Positions 18,315 through 24,902 of a stretch of DNA of 64,000 nt are shown one piece after another (within the stretch, counting starts at the first letter, position 1; every line of letters begins with the position of its first letter). Position numbers and translations under genes: made by a program. The notes beneath the pieces are model-generated. The model ran no database searches. It saw nothing but the letters and a program-made list of their open reading frames with translations, and had not been told where the DNA came from. Origin of the DNA: Patescibacteria group bacterium (lineage in GTDB: Bacteria > Patescibacteriota > Patescibacteriia > SG8-24 > DYFX01); NCBI GenBank assembly GCA_030583805.1, contig CP129476.1, positions 669,640-733,639 of the forward strand, given 5' to 3'.

Positions 18315-18389
18315 GGCCTCATCGTCTAACGGTTAGGACAGCTCCCTTTCACGGAGCAGATAGGGGTTCGATTCCCCTTGGGGCTACCA
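18315..18389 (+). tRNA. tRNA-Glu (anticodon UUC)
   Basis: Hand-folded cloverleaf. The acceptor stem is GGCCUCA/UGGGGCU with 2 G-U pairs. The D arm is GTCT/GGAC. The anticodon arm is GCTCC-cTTTCAc-GGAGC. The T arm is AGGGG-TTCGATT-CCCCT. CCA is encoded. Confidence 0.8.
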
Positions 18390-19878
18390 AAAGCGACCTT
18401 CCTTCCGGGAAGGTCGTTTTTATTGCAAAGATTGGCGACAAAGCGGTAGTTCCAAATTTGTTTCCGTCGAAAGTCAGTCTTTCCTTGAAAATTAGGTTCT
18501 GAAAACGGATACGGGCGTGATGATTGCCTTCAAGGCCCATCCATGTCTTGGCGGGCTGACCAATAAATTTAAAGCAGTAGTCCATAGCCCCCTGCAGATC
18601 AAAGTCGTCCTTTCGGTTATCTTCTATCAGCGAGTATTGGACGTCGAGCCTCTTGCTATTCAATGCCCGCTGCTCCTGAAAATCCTCATCACTATATTTT
18701 CCGTTTCGGTGTAATTCAAAGATTTGCTGACGCTCGATCTTCAGCTTTTCAATAATCTGTTGTACGGCAGCCTCTCGTTTGTCAAAACGTCGGTGATTGG
18801 ACTTCCAAATGTCCATAACAACCGATTTGAACAACTTCTCGTATTTCTGATCGGGAGCGATTGTAGAAAGGTGCTTAACAAAAGTACTTTCAAATTTATC
18901 TTTTGCGATTGTTTTTTTCTTGGAGCACGCACTATTGGAGTGGTGGTAATAGGGGTAGCGCTTACCTTTCCACCCTCGCGTGTTGCTACCAGTTAGTGGC
19001 GACCCGCATTCAGCGCAGCAAATAAGTTTCCGTAGTGGAAACATAGAATTATCAGTTTCCCGAGGTACGGACCAGCTGGAACGTTGGCCCGTCGGCTGCT
19101 GGCACGCCCGGAAAAGTTGCGGGGCAATAATAGGTTCAAAGCCGCCCACCCATTCCTCACCAAAAGCTTTGATAACTCCGCAATATGCCGGGTTGCGTAG
19201 CAGCTTTTGGACCTCTTGCGGCAGGATGGGTTTCTTACGTTTCGTGAGCAAGCCTTGCTTTGTCAAGAAATCCGCCATTTCCTTATAGGTCTTCTCCCCC
19301 TTCGCGTATTCTTCAAAACCTGCACGCACAATGGGCGCCATGATCGGATCAGGAACAATATGCGTTCTTTTACCGCGCAGAGGTTTGTAGTACCCCAGAG
19401 GTGGTATCCAAACCCAGTACCCCTCCTTTGCACGTTGGATCATTCCATTTTTTGTTCGATTGGCACGTTGCGCATTATCGTATTGAGCAACAAGAGCATG
19501 GATACCTCCCATGAATTCACCCTCCGGGGTTTCGTTGATCGTTTCAGATACGGACCGCAAGCTCGTCCCATGCTTCAACAAGATTTCACGCACCCCTAAA
19601 TGCACCTGCGCGTTGCGAGAAAAGCGGTCCAACTTATGGACGATGAAGAAGGTGGGCTTGTTTTTCGTGCAGTAGTCAATCGCTGCCATAAACGCAGCGC
19701 GGTCAGCCGTTTTGGCGGATTGGCCACCCTCAACAAAAACCTTCAGGACGGTAATCTTGTTTCGCTGAGCATACTCGCGGCACTGCTCCTCCTGCGTCTC
19801 CAAGCTGGTCCCCTCAACCTGCTCTTTCGAAGAAACGCGGACGTAGATAATACATGTTTGGTTGGCCTGTGGGTTCAT
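18349..19878 (-). CDS. Large serine recombinase (integrase)
   Basis: 509 aa. The N-terminal resolvase catalytic domain (IIYVRVSSKEQ) is followed by a recombinase domain and a zinc ribbon (CCAECGSPL...). The last ~13 codons (...GIEPLSAP) are encoded by the complementary strand of the tRNA-Glu T-arm and acceptor. Confidence 0.85.
   Translation of the reverse strand: MNPQANQTCIIYVRVSSKEQVEGTSLETQEEQCREYAQRNKITVLKVFVEGGQSAKTADRAAFMAAIDYCTKNKPTFFIVHKLDRFSRNAQVHLGVREILLKHGTSLRSVSETINETPEGEFMGGIHALVAQYDNAQRANRTKNGMIQRAKEGYWVWIPPLGYYKPLRGKRTHIVPDPIMAPIVRAGFEEYAKGEKTYKEMADFLTKQGLLTKRKKPILPQEVQKLLRNPAYCGVIKAFGEEWVGGFEPIIAPQLFRACQQPTGQRSSWSVPRETDNSMFPLRKLICCAECGSPLTGSNTRGWKGKRYPYYHHSNSACSKKKTIAKDKFESTFVKHLSTIAPDQKYEKLFKSVVMDIWKSNHRRFDKREAAVQQIIEKLKIERQQIFELHRNGKYSDEDFQEQRALNSKRLDVQYSLIEDNRKDDFDLQGAMDYCFKFIGQPAKTWMGLEGNHHARIRFQNLIFKERLTFDGNKFGTTALSPIFAIKTTFPEGRSLLVAPRGIEPLSAP
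18393..18421 (+). terminator. Hairpin plus T-run immediately after the tRNA
   Basis: The sequence gcgaccttccttccgggaaggtcg ends in ttttt. Confidence 0.6.
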
Positions 19879-20198
19879 AGCTCATTCCGTACAATACCCA
19901 ATTTTTCGATGTTGGAGCCGACCCCAAGGGGTTTTTTGGAAAGATGATCTATTTTCCATCCCCGAGCATCGAAAGCTAGATGTCCGATGCCATACAAGAT
20001 TGCTAAAATACCCTCTAACTGCTCATTAGTGAGGTCTTTCAAGGCCGGATCGACTTTTCTAGCCTGTTTGGGCGAGAGCATCAGGAATAGCAACAAAAAA
20101 GCGTGCATGCCCACAACCCAAAAATAGGGGTTGTGAGGCATACACGCTTTCCGGCGATCCGACGTTATCGGACCGTACCCGGCTTCGGCGCTCGGCAA
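19875..20198 (-). CDS. Hypothetical small membrane protein
   Basis: 107-aa ORF that overlaps the recombinase start by 4 nt. It has one hydrophobic segment and low GC like the rest of the island. Confidence 0.35.
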   Translation of the reverse strand: MPSAEAGYGPITSDRRKACMPHNPYFWVVGMHAFLLLFLMLSPKQARKVDPALKDLTNEQLEGILAILYGIGHLAFDARGWKIDHLSKKPLGVGSNIEKLGIVRNEL

Positions 20199-20269
20199 AT
20201 TGCCGACGGTTGGGAAGACCTTATAGCGACAAGATTATATCTTTTTTGCACCCTATGCAAGTGCTGGTG

Positions 20270-22033
20270 TTATGCGGCTAGCTGCTCAAACACTGGGTCC
20301 AAACGTTCGGCTGCTACCCTTTTGGCACCGACCATTTTTGCCAGTTCCAAACACGCAACACCATATCCAATATTCTTCGAAGCAATATGGCGTTGATAAA
20401 ATTCCTTCAACATGGCTTTGCCGTGAAAACGATCTGTGGCCTTTCCCTCCGCCAATATTCCATCAACTACTTCGGTGGCATCAAGCACATAGCGCCCTAG
20501 GTCCGTGTCGTTAGGCAGCAATGCTTGAATTTCAGCCACCGCGCTTCTGTGGGCCTCCTTCACCTCCGCAACCGTAGCACCATTAAGACGCACCGTCCGA
20601 GTTTTTAACTTTTGACGAACGCGCCGTGCAATCTCGCTATTCTTCATGCTTGTAGCAATTACAACAAGCTCTTTCGAGAGTGCCGCTTCATCCGCAAAGG
20701 TATTCACTTCGATACTCAACAAGTACTGTTGCAGAATTTCCGGGTCTAAAAGGAAATTTTCGATCATGCATACAGGTAGCTGAAAAACGCCTGGGGTGCT
20801 TCCGAGAGATTGATCTGCGTCTACAAGACCCCTCACACGAATTCTATAGACGTCTTCGGGAACATGCTCGCGCAGACGAGTGACCGTATTAATGACATTC
20901 CCCTTACCACCCACTGGAACCAGTGTGTATGCAGTTGCCCTTGGATAAAAGATTTGAAGCAATCGAAGGTCGGAAGGCTCGTCGGGCGGTGCTGTCTCGC
21001 CTTCAATGCAAACCAGCGCTCGACCAGTGGTAAGGAAATAGGTACTACCAGCGAGTTGCTTTAGGGCCTCTAAGCGCTCAAGGCTAGATGCAATGCGCTT
21101 GAGTTGGTTTTCTTCCGGATCAGCTGACGGATTGGACAACAGGTACAACTCGTTGTCGAACGTCTGATCTAAGATGGTGGGTGAATGTGTAGTGAGAACG
21201 AATTGAGTTCTTGCAGTTGCTGCTTGGTTTCGTACGTAAGCAAGCAATTTTGATTGTAGGTCCGGGTGCAAATGCTGCTCTGGCTCATCCACTAAAAAAA
21301 CCCGATCCTCCGGCGCTCGAGCGGCCGGAGTGCTGCCAGACCCAATAGTTTCTAATTTCTCCAAATTCTCACGAATAGCGTCCTCCAGCAGGGGAAGGAA
21401 AAGAACGATGATCGATTTTTCGCCCGAACTCATGTCGTCAATATCAACCTCGATGGTGCCGCTGGCATCCTTACGAGCCCAGATACAACGGATATTTTCT
21501 TCGTCGGCAAAATCAATCCTATCGAAAACGAGGTGTGGCAATAGATACTTAGTCAGGTTTTCTAGGGGTTCGTAGATGCGCGGCAATGTTGCCGGATCAA
21601 TAGTTTCCCCATGACGTTGCTTTGCATCAACTACTCCAGCAATGATTGCCTGCCGCCGATTTTCGATCTTCCCTAGGGTATGCTTGATCGTACTACCAGC
21701 TTCATCGACGTTTCCGGGCGTGCGGGCAGAGTTATGAAAACTCAGGCCCTCGTAACCAGAAACATCATTGCCAGAAATCAAATCCGCAAGTGACCTAAGA
21801 CCGCCGGACAACCATCCACGCCTTACTTTAGTGGCGCGAAGAACACGGTGGGGCGGTTGATAAAAAATACGCGTGTTACCATCCGTGGTATTAGCACCTT
21901 GTTTAATGGCATATAAAAGCGTGGACTTGCCCACACCATTCGGACCAGCAATAACCATCACAGCCGGAACCTCTGTCGCTTCAGCTAGACGAATGGACTT
22001 GTTATTTACGACCCTGAAAGTTTTTAACCCCAT
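20270..22033 (-). CDS. OLD-family / PARIS (AriA-AriB fusion)-like ABC-type ATPase with C-terminal Toprim-like nuclease domain
   Basis: 587 aa. ABC-ATPase motifs seen: Walker A GPNGVGKST, Q-loop FYQPPH, signature-like MSSGEKS, Walker B/D-loop VFLVDEPEQHLHP, and H-loop LTTHSP. A C-terminal region with LVCIEGETA and GLVDADQS resembles the Toprim E and DxD motifs of OLD/DUF4435 nucleases. Confidence 0.6.
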   Translation of the reverse strand: MGLKTFRVVNNKSIRLAEATEVPAVMVIAGPNGVGKSTLLYAIKQGANTTDGNTRIFYQPPHRVLRATKVRRGWLSGGLRSLADLISGNDVSGYEGLSFHNSARTPGNVDEAGSTIKHTLGKIENRRQAIIAGVVDAKQRHGETIDPATLPRIYEPLENLTKYLLPHLVFDRIDFADEENIRCIWARKDASGTIEVDIDDMSSGEKSIIVLFLPLLEDAIRENLEKLETIGSGSTPAARAPEDRVFLVDEPEQHLHPDLQSKLLAYVRNQAATARTQFVLTTHSPTILDQTFDNELYLLSNPSADPEENQLKRIASSLERLEALKQLAGSTYFLTTGRALVCIEGETAPPDEPSDLRLLQIFYPRATAYTLVPVGGKGNVINTVTRLREHVPEDVYRIRVRGLVDADQSLGSTPGVFQLPVCMIENFLLDPEILQQYLLSIEVNTFADEAALSKELVVIATSMKNSEIARRVRQKLKTRTVRLNGATVAEVKEAHRSAVAEIQALLPNDTDLGRYVLDATEVVDGILAEGKATDRFHGKAMLKEFYQRHIASKNIGYGVACLELAKMVGAKRVAAERLDPVFEQLAA

Positions 22034-22346
22034 GTTTATTTGCTTGCTGACTTACGTTGGACAGAAGCGCCTTCACACGCTCCTTTTGATCATTGGACAT
22101 CCACTGTGCCCAATACCCCTGATATGAGGCAAGTTGTAGATAGGCGTTATACGCCGCGTCACCAGCGAATAGCTGTTGTGCCTGCGGTGAGCGGGTAACT
22201 AGTGTGGGGCTGTTGGTAGTGGCACGCAGCACCAGTCTTTGCGTGTCGGGCTGGTTATTTTCAGCGGTTTCTAAGCACCACTCAATATGGTCGAGCAATG
22301 CTCCATGCTTTGCGACATTATCACTGATTGGGATGCGAAAAAACAT
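22002..22346 (-). CDS. Hypothetical protein (114 aa), co-operonic with the OLD-like gene
   Basis: The ORF overlaps the downstream ATPase start by 32 nt. It has no known motif and the island's low-GC composition. Confidence 0.4.
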   Translation of the reverse strand: MFFRIPISDNVAKHGALLDHIEWCLETAENNQPDTQRLVLRATTNSPTLVTRSPQAQQLFAGDAAYNAYLQLASYQGYWAQWMSNDQKERVKALLSNVSQQANKHGVKNFQGRK

Positions 22347-22349
22347 ACT

Positions 22350-22562
22350 TCAGTTCTCGGTTCTCTCATTAATGAGCTCGCCTAAACATACAAGGTAAGC
22401 GACGCTAATGCCTACCACGAAAGCACGTTGTACCATTCCGCCACCGAAGACGTAGCCCAGAAGTGTGCCGCCAACAAACGCTGCGACCTGCTGAAGAATG
22501 ATCCTGCGAATTGGTGCCTCGCCTATTCCATACCAGCCCCAAAACCCTCTCTCTTTTTTCAT
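22350..22562 (-). CDS. Small two-TM membrane protein (hypothetical)
   Basis: MKKERGFWGWYG... with two hydrophobic helices. It is the first gene of the three-gene minus-strand operon. The start is uncertain (no SD). Confidence 0.35.
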   Translation of the reverse strand: MKKERGFWGWYGIGEAPIRRIILQQVAAFVGGTLLGYVFGGGMVQRAFVVGISVAYLVCLGELINERTEN

Positions 22563-22815
22563 ACCCGTGGTTGGATTTATTGGCAGGACGCACAAAGCTC
22601 CCCGCCAGCGATGGCTTGCGCCACCCATGCAAGTTTCCCTGCATGACCAACCACGGTGCTCTGACGAGGAGCCCTATACCGTGGTTGGTTTAGATGCCGT
22701 GCCCAGCGTTTTAGGCTGGGGTTAGGCACTATGAATTGTGGTGGTAATTTATCACATCTGGACCAGAAAGCTACAATGCTCGCTCCAAGACGCCTACTTT
22801 CAAAATTCGCTAAAC

Positions 22816-24273
22816 ATGGCTAGGCTTGTTAGCAACACCCCCCCCTTCACTCAGAAGACAATGATTGAAAAAACTGAAATAGAGGCCAAGGCAAAGGAGT
22901 TTGAGCTACACGTCGCAAATGTACAACGTGACTATGTTTTTGGTTGGCTACTTTTTGGTATTTTTACTTCAAGCAAATTAAAAGATCAGATTTTTTTGAA
23001 AGGCGGAAATGCATTACGCAAAGGGTATTTCCGTGACACACGCTTTTCAAGCGATTTGGACCTCGGTATTCCAAATGACATTGAACAGACTGTTTTGCTC
23101 GATGAGTTCAATGCTGTCTGCGCCTTTGTTGAGCATCACGCGGGGATTTCATTTGTTACGGATGAAAATAAAGTTGAGGAGAAGTTTGCCGCCGCCGAAG
23201 CGCCGATCCCTGGGTTGCGGGTCTATGAGGCCCGGATTTATTTCAGGGATTTCTATGGTAAAGCCGATCATTTCAAAATAAAGGTGGCGATGGACATCAC
23301 CCGTTTCGACAAGGTTCTATTACCGATACAATCGGTTGATTTGATACATCCATACTCTGATGCCAGCGATGTCGCCTGCAAAATCCAGTGTATGAAGTTG
23401 GAGGAGATCATCGCCACGAAATTGAAATGTCTTTTGCAAAGGGAGCATGCTCCTGATTTGTTCGATTACGTATATTCAATCAAACAGCTGGGCGGCGAGC
23501 TCAACAAAACCGAGGTAATTACGACGCTGGTTCAGAAAACAATTTTCGGACGCAACCCACATGTTCTGAAATGTATTCTACGAAATACACCTTTTGACTA
23601 TTTCAAAAGCTATTGGGCAACGACCGTTGTGTGTGCGAAACAATTTATCTTTGGAGTAGAAGAAGCAATTACGTTTTTTCTTTCTGACCTCGAAGGCTTG
23701 TTCACCATTTACCCGGATAATGGCTTCGAAGCGTTTGCTTACTTTGGACCAGAATTGAGATTGCCGATCATGAAGGCTGGGAGAGAGCAGACACTGCTCA
23801 AAATTTGCTATAAGGGAGCGGATAGGCTGGTCGAGCCCTACTCTCTGAAGTACATGCAACGTAAGGATGGCGTAGAGAGAGAATATCTATACGTCTACAA
23901 TCTAAGCGGCGGAGATAGCGAGCCCGGAATACGTTCATTTGTCGCGGAGAAAATTGAAGCAATCGAAAATACGAATGAAAAATTCGCCCCTCGGGCGCAA
24001 ATCGAATTATCAAAGGCTGGAGAGCTACCAGAAAATCCATACCTTTTTGACCCAGATAGGCCAACTCCCGCTCCACGCCCCCGCCATCGCGTCAGTAAGT
24101 TGACCCGAGGCTGGGGAAGCGCGGCGTCGTCAATCAAATACATCTATCAGTGTAGCTATTGCGGTCGAAAATTTTCTAAATCGAAACATGACGGATCGCT
24201 GCGAGAGCACAAAGACAAGGGAGGCTATCGCTGCGGAGGTAGGCACGGCTTCTATGTCGACACAAAATACTAA
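22816..24273 (+). CDS. AbiEii/DUF1814-like nucleotidyltransferase fused to a C-terminal zinc-ribbon (candidate abortive-infection/defence protein)
   Basis: The N-terminal motif IFLKGGNALRKGYFRDTRFSSDLDLG matches the AbiEii-type pol-beta NTase signature (hGG-x9-13-DhDh). The C-terminus YQCSYCGRKF...H...H..C...C is Cys/His-rich. The start is uncertain (22738 GTG, 22816 ATG, or 22861 ATG). A possible -10 TACAAT lies at 22772-22777. Confidence 0.6.
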   Translation: MARLVSNTPPFTQKTMIEKTEIEAKAKEFELHVANVQRDYVFGWLLFGIFTSSKLKDQIFLKGGNALRKGYFRDTRFSSDLDLGIPNDIEQTVLLDEFNAVCAFVEHHAGISFVTDENKVEEKFAAAEAPIPGLRVYEARIYFRDFYGKADHFKIKVAMDITRFDKVLLPIQSVDLIHPYSDASDVACKIQCMKLEEIIATKLKCLLQREHAPDLFDYVYSIKQLGGELNKTEVITTLVQKTIFGRNPHVLKCILRNTPFDYFKSYWATTVVCAKQFIFGVEEAITFFLSDLEGLFTIYPDNGFEAFAYFGPELRLPIMKAGREQTLLKICYKGADRLVEPYSLKYMQRKDGVEREYLYVYNLSGGDSEPGIRSFVAEKIEAIENTNEKFAPRAQIELSKAGELPENPYLFDPDRPTPAPRPRHRVSKLTRGWGSAASSIKYIYQCSYCGRKFSKSKHDGSLREHKDKGGYRCGGRHGFYVDTKY

Positions 24274-24664
24274 ACTTGTTTCCGTTGATTTCGTTCCACG
24301 ATAGCTCGTATATCTGCCGAAATCTGTGCCAGGCCGGGAAACTCGAGTTGTTGACGTTCGCCCCACCCCTCAACCCATTGAAGCCACAGCTTACGGTCTG
24401 CGGAGGCACCCGAACTTGGGCTCACAGCTCTCTTGTAAAGAGCCTGAATAACGTCGGGGGTTTTGTCTTTGGTCCAAGCAGCCATTGATCTTCGGACGCG
24501 CTCATCAAATCCGGTGACGAGCCTCCAATCAGAGAGTGTCGCCGGATCAACATCCAAAAGCACTGCCAATTCTTTCTGATTACGTGGACGTCGCAGAGGT
24601 GTAGGAAGCGCACACCACGCAACAAATTTCTCGAATTCGACTATCTTTTTTGTAAGAGACATAA
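24270..24664 (-). CDS. Small HTH DNA-binding protein (terminase-small-subunit-like, or a possible recombination directionality factor)
   Basis: Start MSLTKKIVEFEKF. The predicted HTH is ...NQKELAVLLDVDPATLSDWR. It is convergent with the NTase gene and is the last gene of the low-GC island. Confidence 0.4.
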
Positions 24665-24820
24665 TTGGCTTAAATTGGCATAGCGACGCCCGTTCCATCA
24701 CCTCGTGGCACCTAGTGTGTAGGAACGATAGTCCTGCGAGGAAGGCTGTCAGCAAAGAGCTTCCATTGTTTGAGCTCGGCCACGATTTCGTTCCAGATTT
24801 CAGTGGTCCGGGCTACCACC

Positions 24821-24855
24821 AAAACACCCGCCTAAACGGCGGGTGTTTTGTTTTT
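24821..24855. terminator. Bidirectional terminator at the right edge of the island
   Basis: The hairpin acacccgcctaaacggcgggtgt is flanked by aaaa on one side and tttgttttt on the other. Confidence 0.65.
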
Positions 24856-24873
24856 AAAAATTAGGCGCGAATC

Positions 24874-24902
24874 TTGACGTTGTCGGTTTTCTCTGCTATT
24901 TT
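24874..24902 (+). promoter_or_regulatory. Putative sigma-70 promoter for 24937-25920
   Basis: TTGACG, a 17-nt spacer, then TATTTT. A GGAGG SD lies before the GTG start. Confidence 0.4.

Follow-up and report, generated by a model that had tools for sequence, protein, structure and literature searches.

A likely merged PARIS (AriAB) gene as cargo on a putative tRNA-Glu island of a Patescibacteria genome

In PARIS of E. coli, six AriA subunits keep three AriB subunits inactive until the ATP-dependent detection of a foreign protein (e.g., Ocr) frees AriB, whose dimer cuts host lysine tRNA and thereby blocks infection (PMC11464382). PARIS has been placed as class 4 of the OLD-like family, and merged ariAB genes, forming the clades "merged 1 and 2," have been described as well (Burman et al., 2024; PMC11464382); a second report agrees on the fusion of ariA to ariB (PMC12409363). 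AriB consists of a Toprim domain and, at its C-terminus, a bundle of helices, has the acidic active-site residues E26, D30, D88, E90, and E122, and is reported to be without the catalytic lysine of OLD enzymes, which act on DNA (PMC10802264). Here we describe a gene for a protein of 587 amino acids (aa) in a 64,000-nucleotide (nt) stretch of DNA from a Patescibacteria group bacterium (assembly GCA_030583805.1, contig CP129476.1, positions 669,640 to 733,639 of the forward strand), hereafter the window, in which all positions are counted from the first letter. Judged from its sequence, the gene is likely to be a stand-alone, single-polypeptide defence gene of the PARIS type (merged AriAB, OLD-family class 4), carried as cargo on an island of ~6.5 kb beside a tRNA-Glu gene. 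A first-pass annotation of the same DNA had instead taken it for the last gene of an overlapping three-gene array and had proposed that the combination of the fused protein with two small genes was an undescribed architecture.

The three minus-strand open reading frames (ORFs) of that proposal are present, and are laid out as follows.

20270..22033 (-), ariAB-like gene, 587 aa, encoding a putative merged PARIS-type ABC ATPase plus DUF4435/Toprim nuclease
21032..22033 (-), ATPase half of the 587-aa protein (aa 1-334), with the ABC motifs
20270..21031 (-), nuclease half of the 587-aa protein (aa 335-587), with a predicted Toprim core and helical bundle
22002..22346 (-), p114, gene for a predicted helical protein of 114 aa, from a rare family of small proteins
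22350..22562 (-), p70, a 70-aa ORF with its ATG at 22562; an alternative start at 22628 would give 92 aa (p92)

The p114 ORF overlaps the start of the ATPase gene by 32 nt on the same strand, and the stop of p70 lies 3 nt ahead of the p114 start. Since the N-terminus of the ATPase (MGLKTF...) lines up with the starts of 26 homologues, both this start and the 32-nt overlap are real. The trio is thus co-directional, as had been claimed, but the array does not end in the ATPase: it runs on, after a gap of 71 nt, into an ORF of 107 aa and then a serine recombinase gene, whose start and the 107-aa ORF overlap by 4 nt. A scan for promoters and terminators returned counts at chance level and so gave no operon evidence either way.

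Profile searches bore out the suggestion that the protein is an OLD/PARIS-like fusion of ABC ATPase and Toprim and a candidate for defence. The best of its 160 PADLOC matches was to AriAB (PDLC02981; 4.9e-43, 145.8 bits), one of two AriAB models in the PADLOC 2023 database (the other is PDLC02982), followed by AriA at 7.6e-24 and then by PtuA, GajA, and others at 1e-13 to 1e-19. When the halves were searched alone, the N-terminal 334 aa matched AriAB (1.2e-29) and then AriA (1.7e-24) best, and the C-terminal 253 aa matched three PARIS models only (AriAB at 1.8e-9, AriAB at 2e-7, and AriB at 7.9e-6), with no match at E up to 0.01 to the PADLOC models of GajA, OLD, AbiLii, mad4, or RloB. In Pfam, the whole protein matched AAA_21 (3.4e-21) and AAA_15 (4.8e-17), families that were both found in 27 of the 27 members of a family alignment (45-61% identity). 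DUF4435 was matched at residues 368-445 of the whole protein (1.5e-4, 22 bits) and by its C-terminal half alone (3.5e-5, 24.1 bits), in each case under the cut-off of 27, and by all 11 family C-terminal halves tested (best 2.6e-12). OLD-like TOPRIM (PF20469) was matched weakly (0.018) by two of these 11 halves, that of the 587-aa protein not among them. As in merged PARIS, therefore, an AAA_15/AAA_21 ATPase with intact motifs, a Toprim of the DUF4435 type, and then a helical bundle follow one another in one chain, and AriAB is the best model both for the protein at full length and for its two halves taken singly. Because PADLOC holds AriAB models and merged ariAB clades have been published, the fusion of ABC ATPase and Toprim in a single polypeptide is already described and is not new, although the first-pass annotation had counted it into an undescribed combination.

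The ATPase motifs are Walker A (G29-T38, GPNGVGKST), Q59, the signature S202-S203-G204, Walker B D249-E250, and the H-loop H283, and the C-terminal half contains C-I-E344-G345-E346 and D405-A-D407, i.e., the EGE and DxD motifs on which the first-pass annotation had based its Toprim-like region. Across the 27 aligned sequences, Walker A (G30...K36-S37-T38), Q59, S202-S203-G204, D249-E250, and H283 were invariant or nearly so, as were the Toprim residues E344-G345, D355, D405, D407, and E425-N426, with E344, G345, D355, D405, D407, and E425-N426 invariant in all. In an AlphaFold2 (AF2) model of mean predicted local distance difference test (pLDDT) score 80, an ABC head, whose fold was confirmed by structure comparison, is joined to a core of alternating strands and helices and to a helical bundle (aa 431-586). 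From its secondary structure we read the core, with strands at 340-345, 370-375, 400-404, and 416-418, as being of the Toprim type; E344 stands at the end of the first of these strands and D405 just after the third. In the make-up read from the model, the C-terminal half would match the description of AriB, with its Toprim domain and helical bundle. Likewise, E344, D355, D405, D407, and E425 repeat the pattern of acidic residues in AriB and would correspond to its metal-binding site, as a match of pattern and not of residues aligned one by one.

In the types of domain and in the order of functions, with the sensor ATPase preceding the Toprim tRNase, the protein is also like the two-gene PARIS of E. 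coli B185 (AriA and AriB; PDB 8UX9, 8V45-49). It differs in being fused and not split, which makes a release of AriB impossible, and in having only short helices (111-140 and 155-164) between Walker A and the signature in the model. Going by the difference in size and the predicted secondary structure, the protein probably retains little of the coiled-coil insertions through which the AriA hexamer is built. A separate observation concerns aa 63-109 (window 21707-21847), in which R63, R66, R72, G96, L97, R104, and P106 are invariant and W74 is nearly so; despite these many invariant positions the segment was modelled at pLDDT <50, and it is a candidate for an oligomer interface or a trigger-binding site.

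Several points weigh against assigning the protein to merged AriAB. Its own DUF4435 score (22-24 bits) stays below the Pfam threshold, 146 bits on an AriAB model of 694 positions make it a divergent relative, its sequence similarity to AriA is weak (3.4e-4), and a profile of its C-terminal half retrieved no AriB chain from the PDB by sequence. At 334 aa, the ATPase half is ~130 aa shorter than AriA (464 aa), and it may not form the AriA6:AriB3 propeller. The 32-nt overlap with p114 suggests co-transcription or translational coupling, so that a local functional link would be possible, and the function, trigger, and substrate of the protein are all predictions. The protein is likened to merged PARIS by HMM (hidden Markov model) match and not by tree, and differs from it in belonging to a populous, so far nameless clade of ~587-aa proteins that is found mainly in metagenomes and here in Patescibacteria. 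Taking the sequence data together, the gene is very probably a defence gene.

A total of 207 relatives of the 587-aa protein were scored, more than 120 of them full-length, and the best 120 were nearly all of 583-610 aa, with 44-64% identity and the same order of domains; they are spread over several phyla, with members in Patescibacteria, Rhizomicrobium, Bryobacteraceae, Sphingosinicella, and Solirubrobacteraceae alongside those from many metagenomes. Phage collections gave no match, and plasmid collections gave a single full-length match, at 31% identity. We compared 94 ATPase-bearing loci, i.e., 80 from genomes and 14 metagenome loci of the closest relatives. In 11 distinct neighbourhoods (relatives at 42-62% identity), the same-strand neighbours upstream of the ATPase differed in each case.

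L081 and L082: no co-directional gene upstream
L001: unrelated ORFs upstream
L002: ATPase relative flanked by IS-like helix-turn-helix (HTH) genes
L085: small ORFs upstream, beside tRNA-Gln
L086: AAA_13 protein upstream
L088: HsdM and HsdS upstream
L090: serine recombinase and a 104-aa ORF upstream
L092: 432-aa protein without assigned function upstream
L111: 76-aa ORF and RHH protein upstream
L112: ArdC-like protein upstream

The closest relatives (~62% identity) were preceded by RHH or ArdC-like genes. No relative of p114, p92, or p70 was detected by tblastn in the 94 loci at E up to 10, and a p114-family profile found nothing in their six-frame translations, again at E up to 10. Conversely, an ATPase profile found no AriAB-like ATPase in 18 other loci with p114 relatives, which were drawn from one look-up and a metagenome scan. 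Elsewhere, the three-gene arrangement was present only in two assemblies whose DNA is 100% identical to the window, i.e., the same organism. The first-pass annotation had made its undescribed three-gene architecture depend on the conservation of the small ORFs beside homologues of the ATPase; they are not conserved there (0 of 94 ATPase loci with p114 or p70, 0 of 18 p114 loci with the ATPase), and on these sequence comparisons p70 and p114 are not conserved partners of AriAB, this genome being the only one in which they precede ariAB.

As a further observation on the neighbourhoods, close AriAB relatives (L082-L084, L086-L087, L088-L089, L090-L092, L112, L001, and L085) stood repeatedly beside genes for large serine recombinases or a tyrosine integrase, for the methylase and specificity subunits of type I restriction-modification (RM) systems, for an ArdC-like protein, and for tRNA-Val, tRNA-Gln, and tRNA-Glu. 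Recurrent integrase, RM, and tRNA neighbours are the setting that is typically expected for a one-gene mobile defence cargo, and merged PARIS is likewise stand-alone in mobile and defence contexts.

For p114, a word-indexed search returned the protein itself only, and HMMER over 1.84 billion representatives found six relatives of 103-122 aa (28-38% identity, E 9e-10 to 6e-4), with the common motifs MF.R..., H-x2-WC, N-x-PD, and FAGDAAYNAY. Structure prediction gave a confident AF2 model, an all-helical bundle (pLDDT 84, predicted template-modelling score 0.78), and no significant fold match in the PDB (best E 1.8). The protein had no match of meaningful E-value in Pfam, PADLOC, NCBIfam, or PHROG, and no relative was found in viral contigs. 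Considering its distant homologues and the confidently predicted helical fold, we take p114 to be a real gene. Its last 10 C-terminal residues, which overlap ariAB, go beyond the ends of most aligned relatives and were modelled poorly, as would fit p114 and ariAB having come together by chance.

The contexts of p114 relatives varied among loci. In L095 (912-3192) and L100 (2132-6755), the relative comes right after an EcoEI-type HsdR and DUF2779 and faces an HD-domain gene, and HD_4 and DUF2779 genes lie near it in L102 (5947-11090); the family may have a recurrent association with HsdR, DUF2779, and HD genes. In L097 and L105, the relative lies in a small integrative element with an integrase, an excisionase-like HTH protein, and an AAA_25 protein, and L097 holds, in addition, a homologue of a 161-aa HTH gene of the window. 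The sharing of both genes suggests that p114 and the 161-aa gene come from a single family of small mobile elements, in which ariAB and a neighbouring AbiEii-like gene would be cargo.

The two-transmembrane miniprotein of about 70 aa that had been proposed does contain two hydrophobic stretches by hydropathy (about residues 21-42 and 46-64), and a database search for relatives of the ORF found only itself. ORFs of this size are common by chance in the region. The in-frame codon-usage signal of p70 is weak, one antisense frame scoring about equally; its GC content follows the order GC1>GC3>GC2, as in neighbouring genes. Since the 22-codon extension to 92 aa has no coding signal, the 70-aa form is favoured. 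The two other assemblies, being 100% identical, offer no variation from which to gauge coding constraint. On this sequence record, p70 is an unsupported hypothetical gene.

One could suppose that p70 and p114 form an independent two-gene module of the mobile element, i.e., a small membrane toxin with its partner or a superinfection-exclusion pair, which abuts ariAB. Small integrative elements and islands of the defence type do carry p114 relatives (alongside integrase, excisionase-like HTH, AAA_25, HsdR, DUF2779, and HD genes), one such island, L097, also has the 161-aa homologue, and small membrane ORFs adjoin p114 relatives in several loci. However, this adjacency was not enriched over background (4/18 vs. 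11/75; Fisher p = 0.32), for which reason p114 plus a small membrane protein was dropped as a recurrent module. Furthermore, the membrane ORFs in question are not homologous to p70, which is itself unsupported, and p114 has no recognisable fold or family. We therefore regard such a module as rather unlikely.

It is unlikely, too, that the ATPase-Toprim protein belongs to another branch of the OLD family, be it class 1 OLD (e.g., P2 Old) or a merged form of AbiL or MADS3-4, in which case it might cut DNA and not tRNA. Models of PtuA, GajA, AbiLi, mad3, and retron ATPases are matched by its ATPase half as well (1e-14 to 1e-20), and the weak OLD-like TOPRIM matches in the family and the failure of the PDB sequence search to return AriB point the same way. 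However, AriAB is the top model for both halves, by 5 to 20 orders of magnitude, the C-terminal half matched none of the GajA, OLD, AbiLii, mad4, and RloB models, and DUF4435 was found in every C-terminal half tested as against two weak matches for OLD-like TOPRIM. Class 1 OLD (P2 Old; Thermus scotoductus OLD, PDB 6P74) is like the 587-aa protein in being a single chain of ABC ATPase and C-terminal Toprim, and Foldseek related the model to the 6P74 fold (7.8e-8); it differs in that the 587-aa protein has a Toprim half of DUF4435 type and not an OLD-like TOPRIM. Gabija GajA (class 2 OLD) also combines ABC ATPase and Toprim, and its models are matched by the ATPase half at ~1e-14 to 1e-16, but not by the C-terminal half; moreover, there is no GajB UvrD-like helicase, a search for a helicase ORF between 18.3 and 24.9 kb having found none. 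For the ATPase head, the nearest structures and sequences among solved proteins are those of PtuA from Septu and of the effector ATPases of type I-A retrons; these have no fused Toprim, and are paired instead with a retron or, as a protein of its own, the HNH nuclease PtuB.

That p70, p114, and the ATPase-Toprim protein make up one three-component defence system, with the small proteins as sensor, membrane effector, or antitoxin, is very unlikely. The 3-nt gap, the 32-nt overlap, the shared strand, and the lack of a terminator-like site between the genes beyond chance would agree with it, as would the recurrence of the trio in two other assemblies, though of identical DNA. Against it stand the complete lack of co-occurrence in both sets of loci, the RHH or ArdC-like genes upstream of the closest ATPase relatives, the isolation of p70, and the fact that both PADLOC and the literature treat merged AriAB as a system of one gene. 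There is an equally slim chance that the three cooperate in this lineage only, with p114 gating or tuning the merged PARIS nuclease, e.g., as a brake in the manner of an antitoxin or as an adaptor for the trigger, a link whose one basis is the 32-nt overlap. If this were true, p114 would supply in trans the sequestration that was lost through the fusion of AriA and AriB, and the link would be a lineage-specific add-on to PARIS and not a new class of system. Finally, an ordinary transporter-type ABC ATPase, as suggested by the automatic JGI names of some homologues ("EcfA2," "lipoprotein export ATPase") and by NCBIfam transporter-ATPase matches that are weak and all far under their cut-offs, has practically no chance of being correct and is ruled out by domain content, considering the conserved 250-aa Toprim/DUF4435 half with its invariant acidic residues, the defence HMMs as best matches, the position on a mobile island, and the lack of a permease or binding-protein gene nearby in the window and the relatives' loci.

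The wider setting of the probable merged AriAB gene is a region of low GC content: between ~18.3 and ~24.9 kb the value drops from ~0.61 to 0.47-0.51, as compared with ~0.60-0.65 across the window. Its further features are as follows.

18315..18389 (+), tRNA-Glu(ttc), found by ARAGORN, bordering the low-GC island on the left
18349..19878 (-), large serine recombinase, 509 aa (Pfam Resolvase 2.5e-31, Recombinase 1.6e-11, Zn_ribbon_recom 1e-8)
19875..20198 (-), 107-aa ORF between ariAB and the recombinase, from the ORF list, with an in-frame codon signal
22738..24273 (+), AbiEii-like nucleotidyltransferase whose C-terminus is greatly extended (Pfam AbiEii 3.9e-21; PADLOC AbiEii 3.7e-45)
24270..24755 (-), 161-aa HTH protein, HTH_Tnp_1_2-like (Pfam HTH_Tnp_1_2 0.017; tblastn to L097)
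24820..24850 (+), terminator-like hairpin with a 13-bp stem and then a T run, bordering the low-GC island on the right

The left edge of the GC dip coincides with the tRNA-Glu gene, into which the 3' end of the recombinase ORF runs for ~14 codons on the opposite strand, and the right edge with the strong hairpin. Between them lie the recombinase, the 107-aa ORF, ariAB, the two small ORFs, the divergent AbiEii-like gene, and the 161-aa HTH gene. From its composition and gene content, 18315-24900 looks like an integrative island of ~6.5 kb beside tRNA-Glu with defence-type cargo, of which the large serine recombinase is the predicted integrase. No convincing or long direct repeats were found when attachment sites were sought at the island ends; serine recombinases are not known to need a long repeat. 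The 161-aa protein is homologous to a 155-aa HTH_Tnp_1_2 protein in L097, 1586-2053 (-) (tblastn 4.8e-14; Pfam 1.1e-5), and by this homology its gene is one of a mobile-element family.

The AbiEii-like gene, which is divergent from the minus-strand array, is by its profile matches a second cargo gene of defence type. Its product is ~200 aa longer than the AbiEii profiles that it matched (219-396 positions), and, because the PADLOC AbiEii alignments begin at residue 42 of the ORF, the true start is likely near 22861. The C-terminal part has a weak WYL match (9e-4, aa 343-423) and a zinc-finger-like tail of Cys and His residues, and no AbiEi-type partner was visible upstream. As for the 107-aa ORF, scans of Pfam, PADLOC, NCBIfam, and PHROG gave no family match. 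A serine recombinase gene is also overlapped by a small ORF at its start in L082 (78 aa) and at its end in L090 (104 aa); no sequence similarity of the 107-aa ORF to either was detected. The 107-aa ORF could encode a recombination directionality factor.

By analogy with E. coli PARIS, the N-terminal ABC ATPase of the merged protein would be an ATP-dependent sensor of a phage protein, e.g., an anti-restriction protein. Sensing would free or re-orient the C-terminal DUF4435/Toprim domain, which, with E344, D405, D407, and E425 as metal-binding residues, would cut a host tRNA, leading to a stop of translation and abortive infection. Since sensor and nuclease are covalently joined, activation would have to be a rearrangement inside the protein or oligomer and not the release of a separate AriB. 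What was observed, and what this scheme starts from, are the domains, the conservation of their motifs, the assignment to the best-matching model, the stand-alone distribution, and the mobile context; the trigger, tRNA target, oligomeric state, and abortive outcome are supplied by the analogy. The presence of relatives near type I RM genes and a homologue of the ArdC anti-restriction protein would fit a sentinel for anti-restriction proteins.

These results suggest that a compact (~587 aa), merged, PARIS-like clade is large and widespread in uncultured bacteria, where its members mostly go under the name "AAA family ATPase" or even under those of transporter ATPases. The clade reaches a reduced Patescibacteria genome, in which it shares a small serine-recombinase island with an AbiEii-like gene. 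The practical value of the finding is modest, and no new class of defence system is opened by it. However, merged forms would be without the AriB-release step, and would therefore be useful for asking how the nuclease is restrained within one chain.

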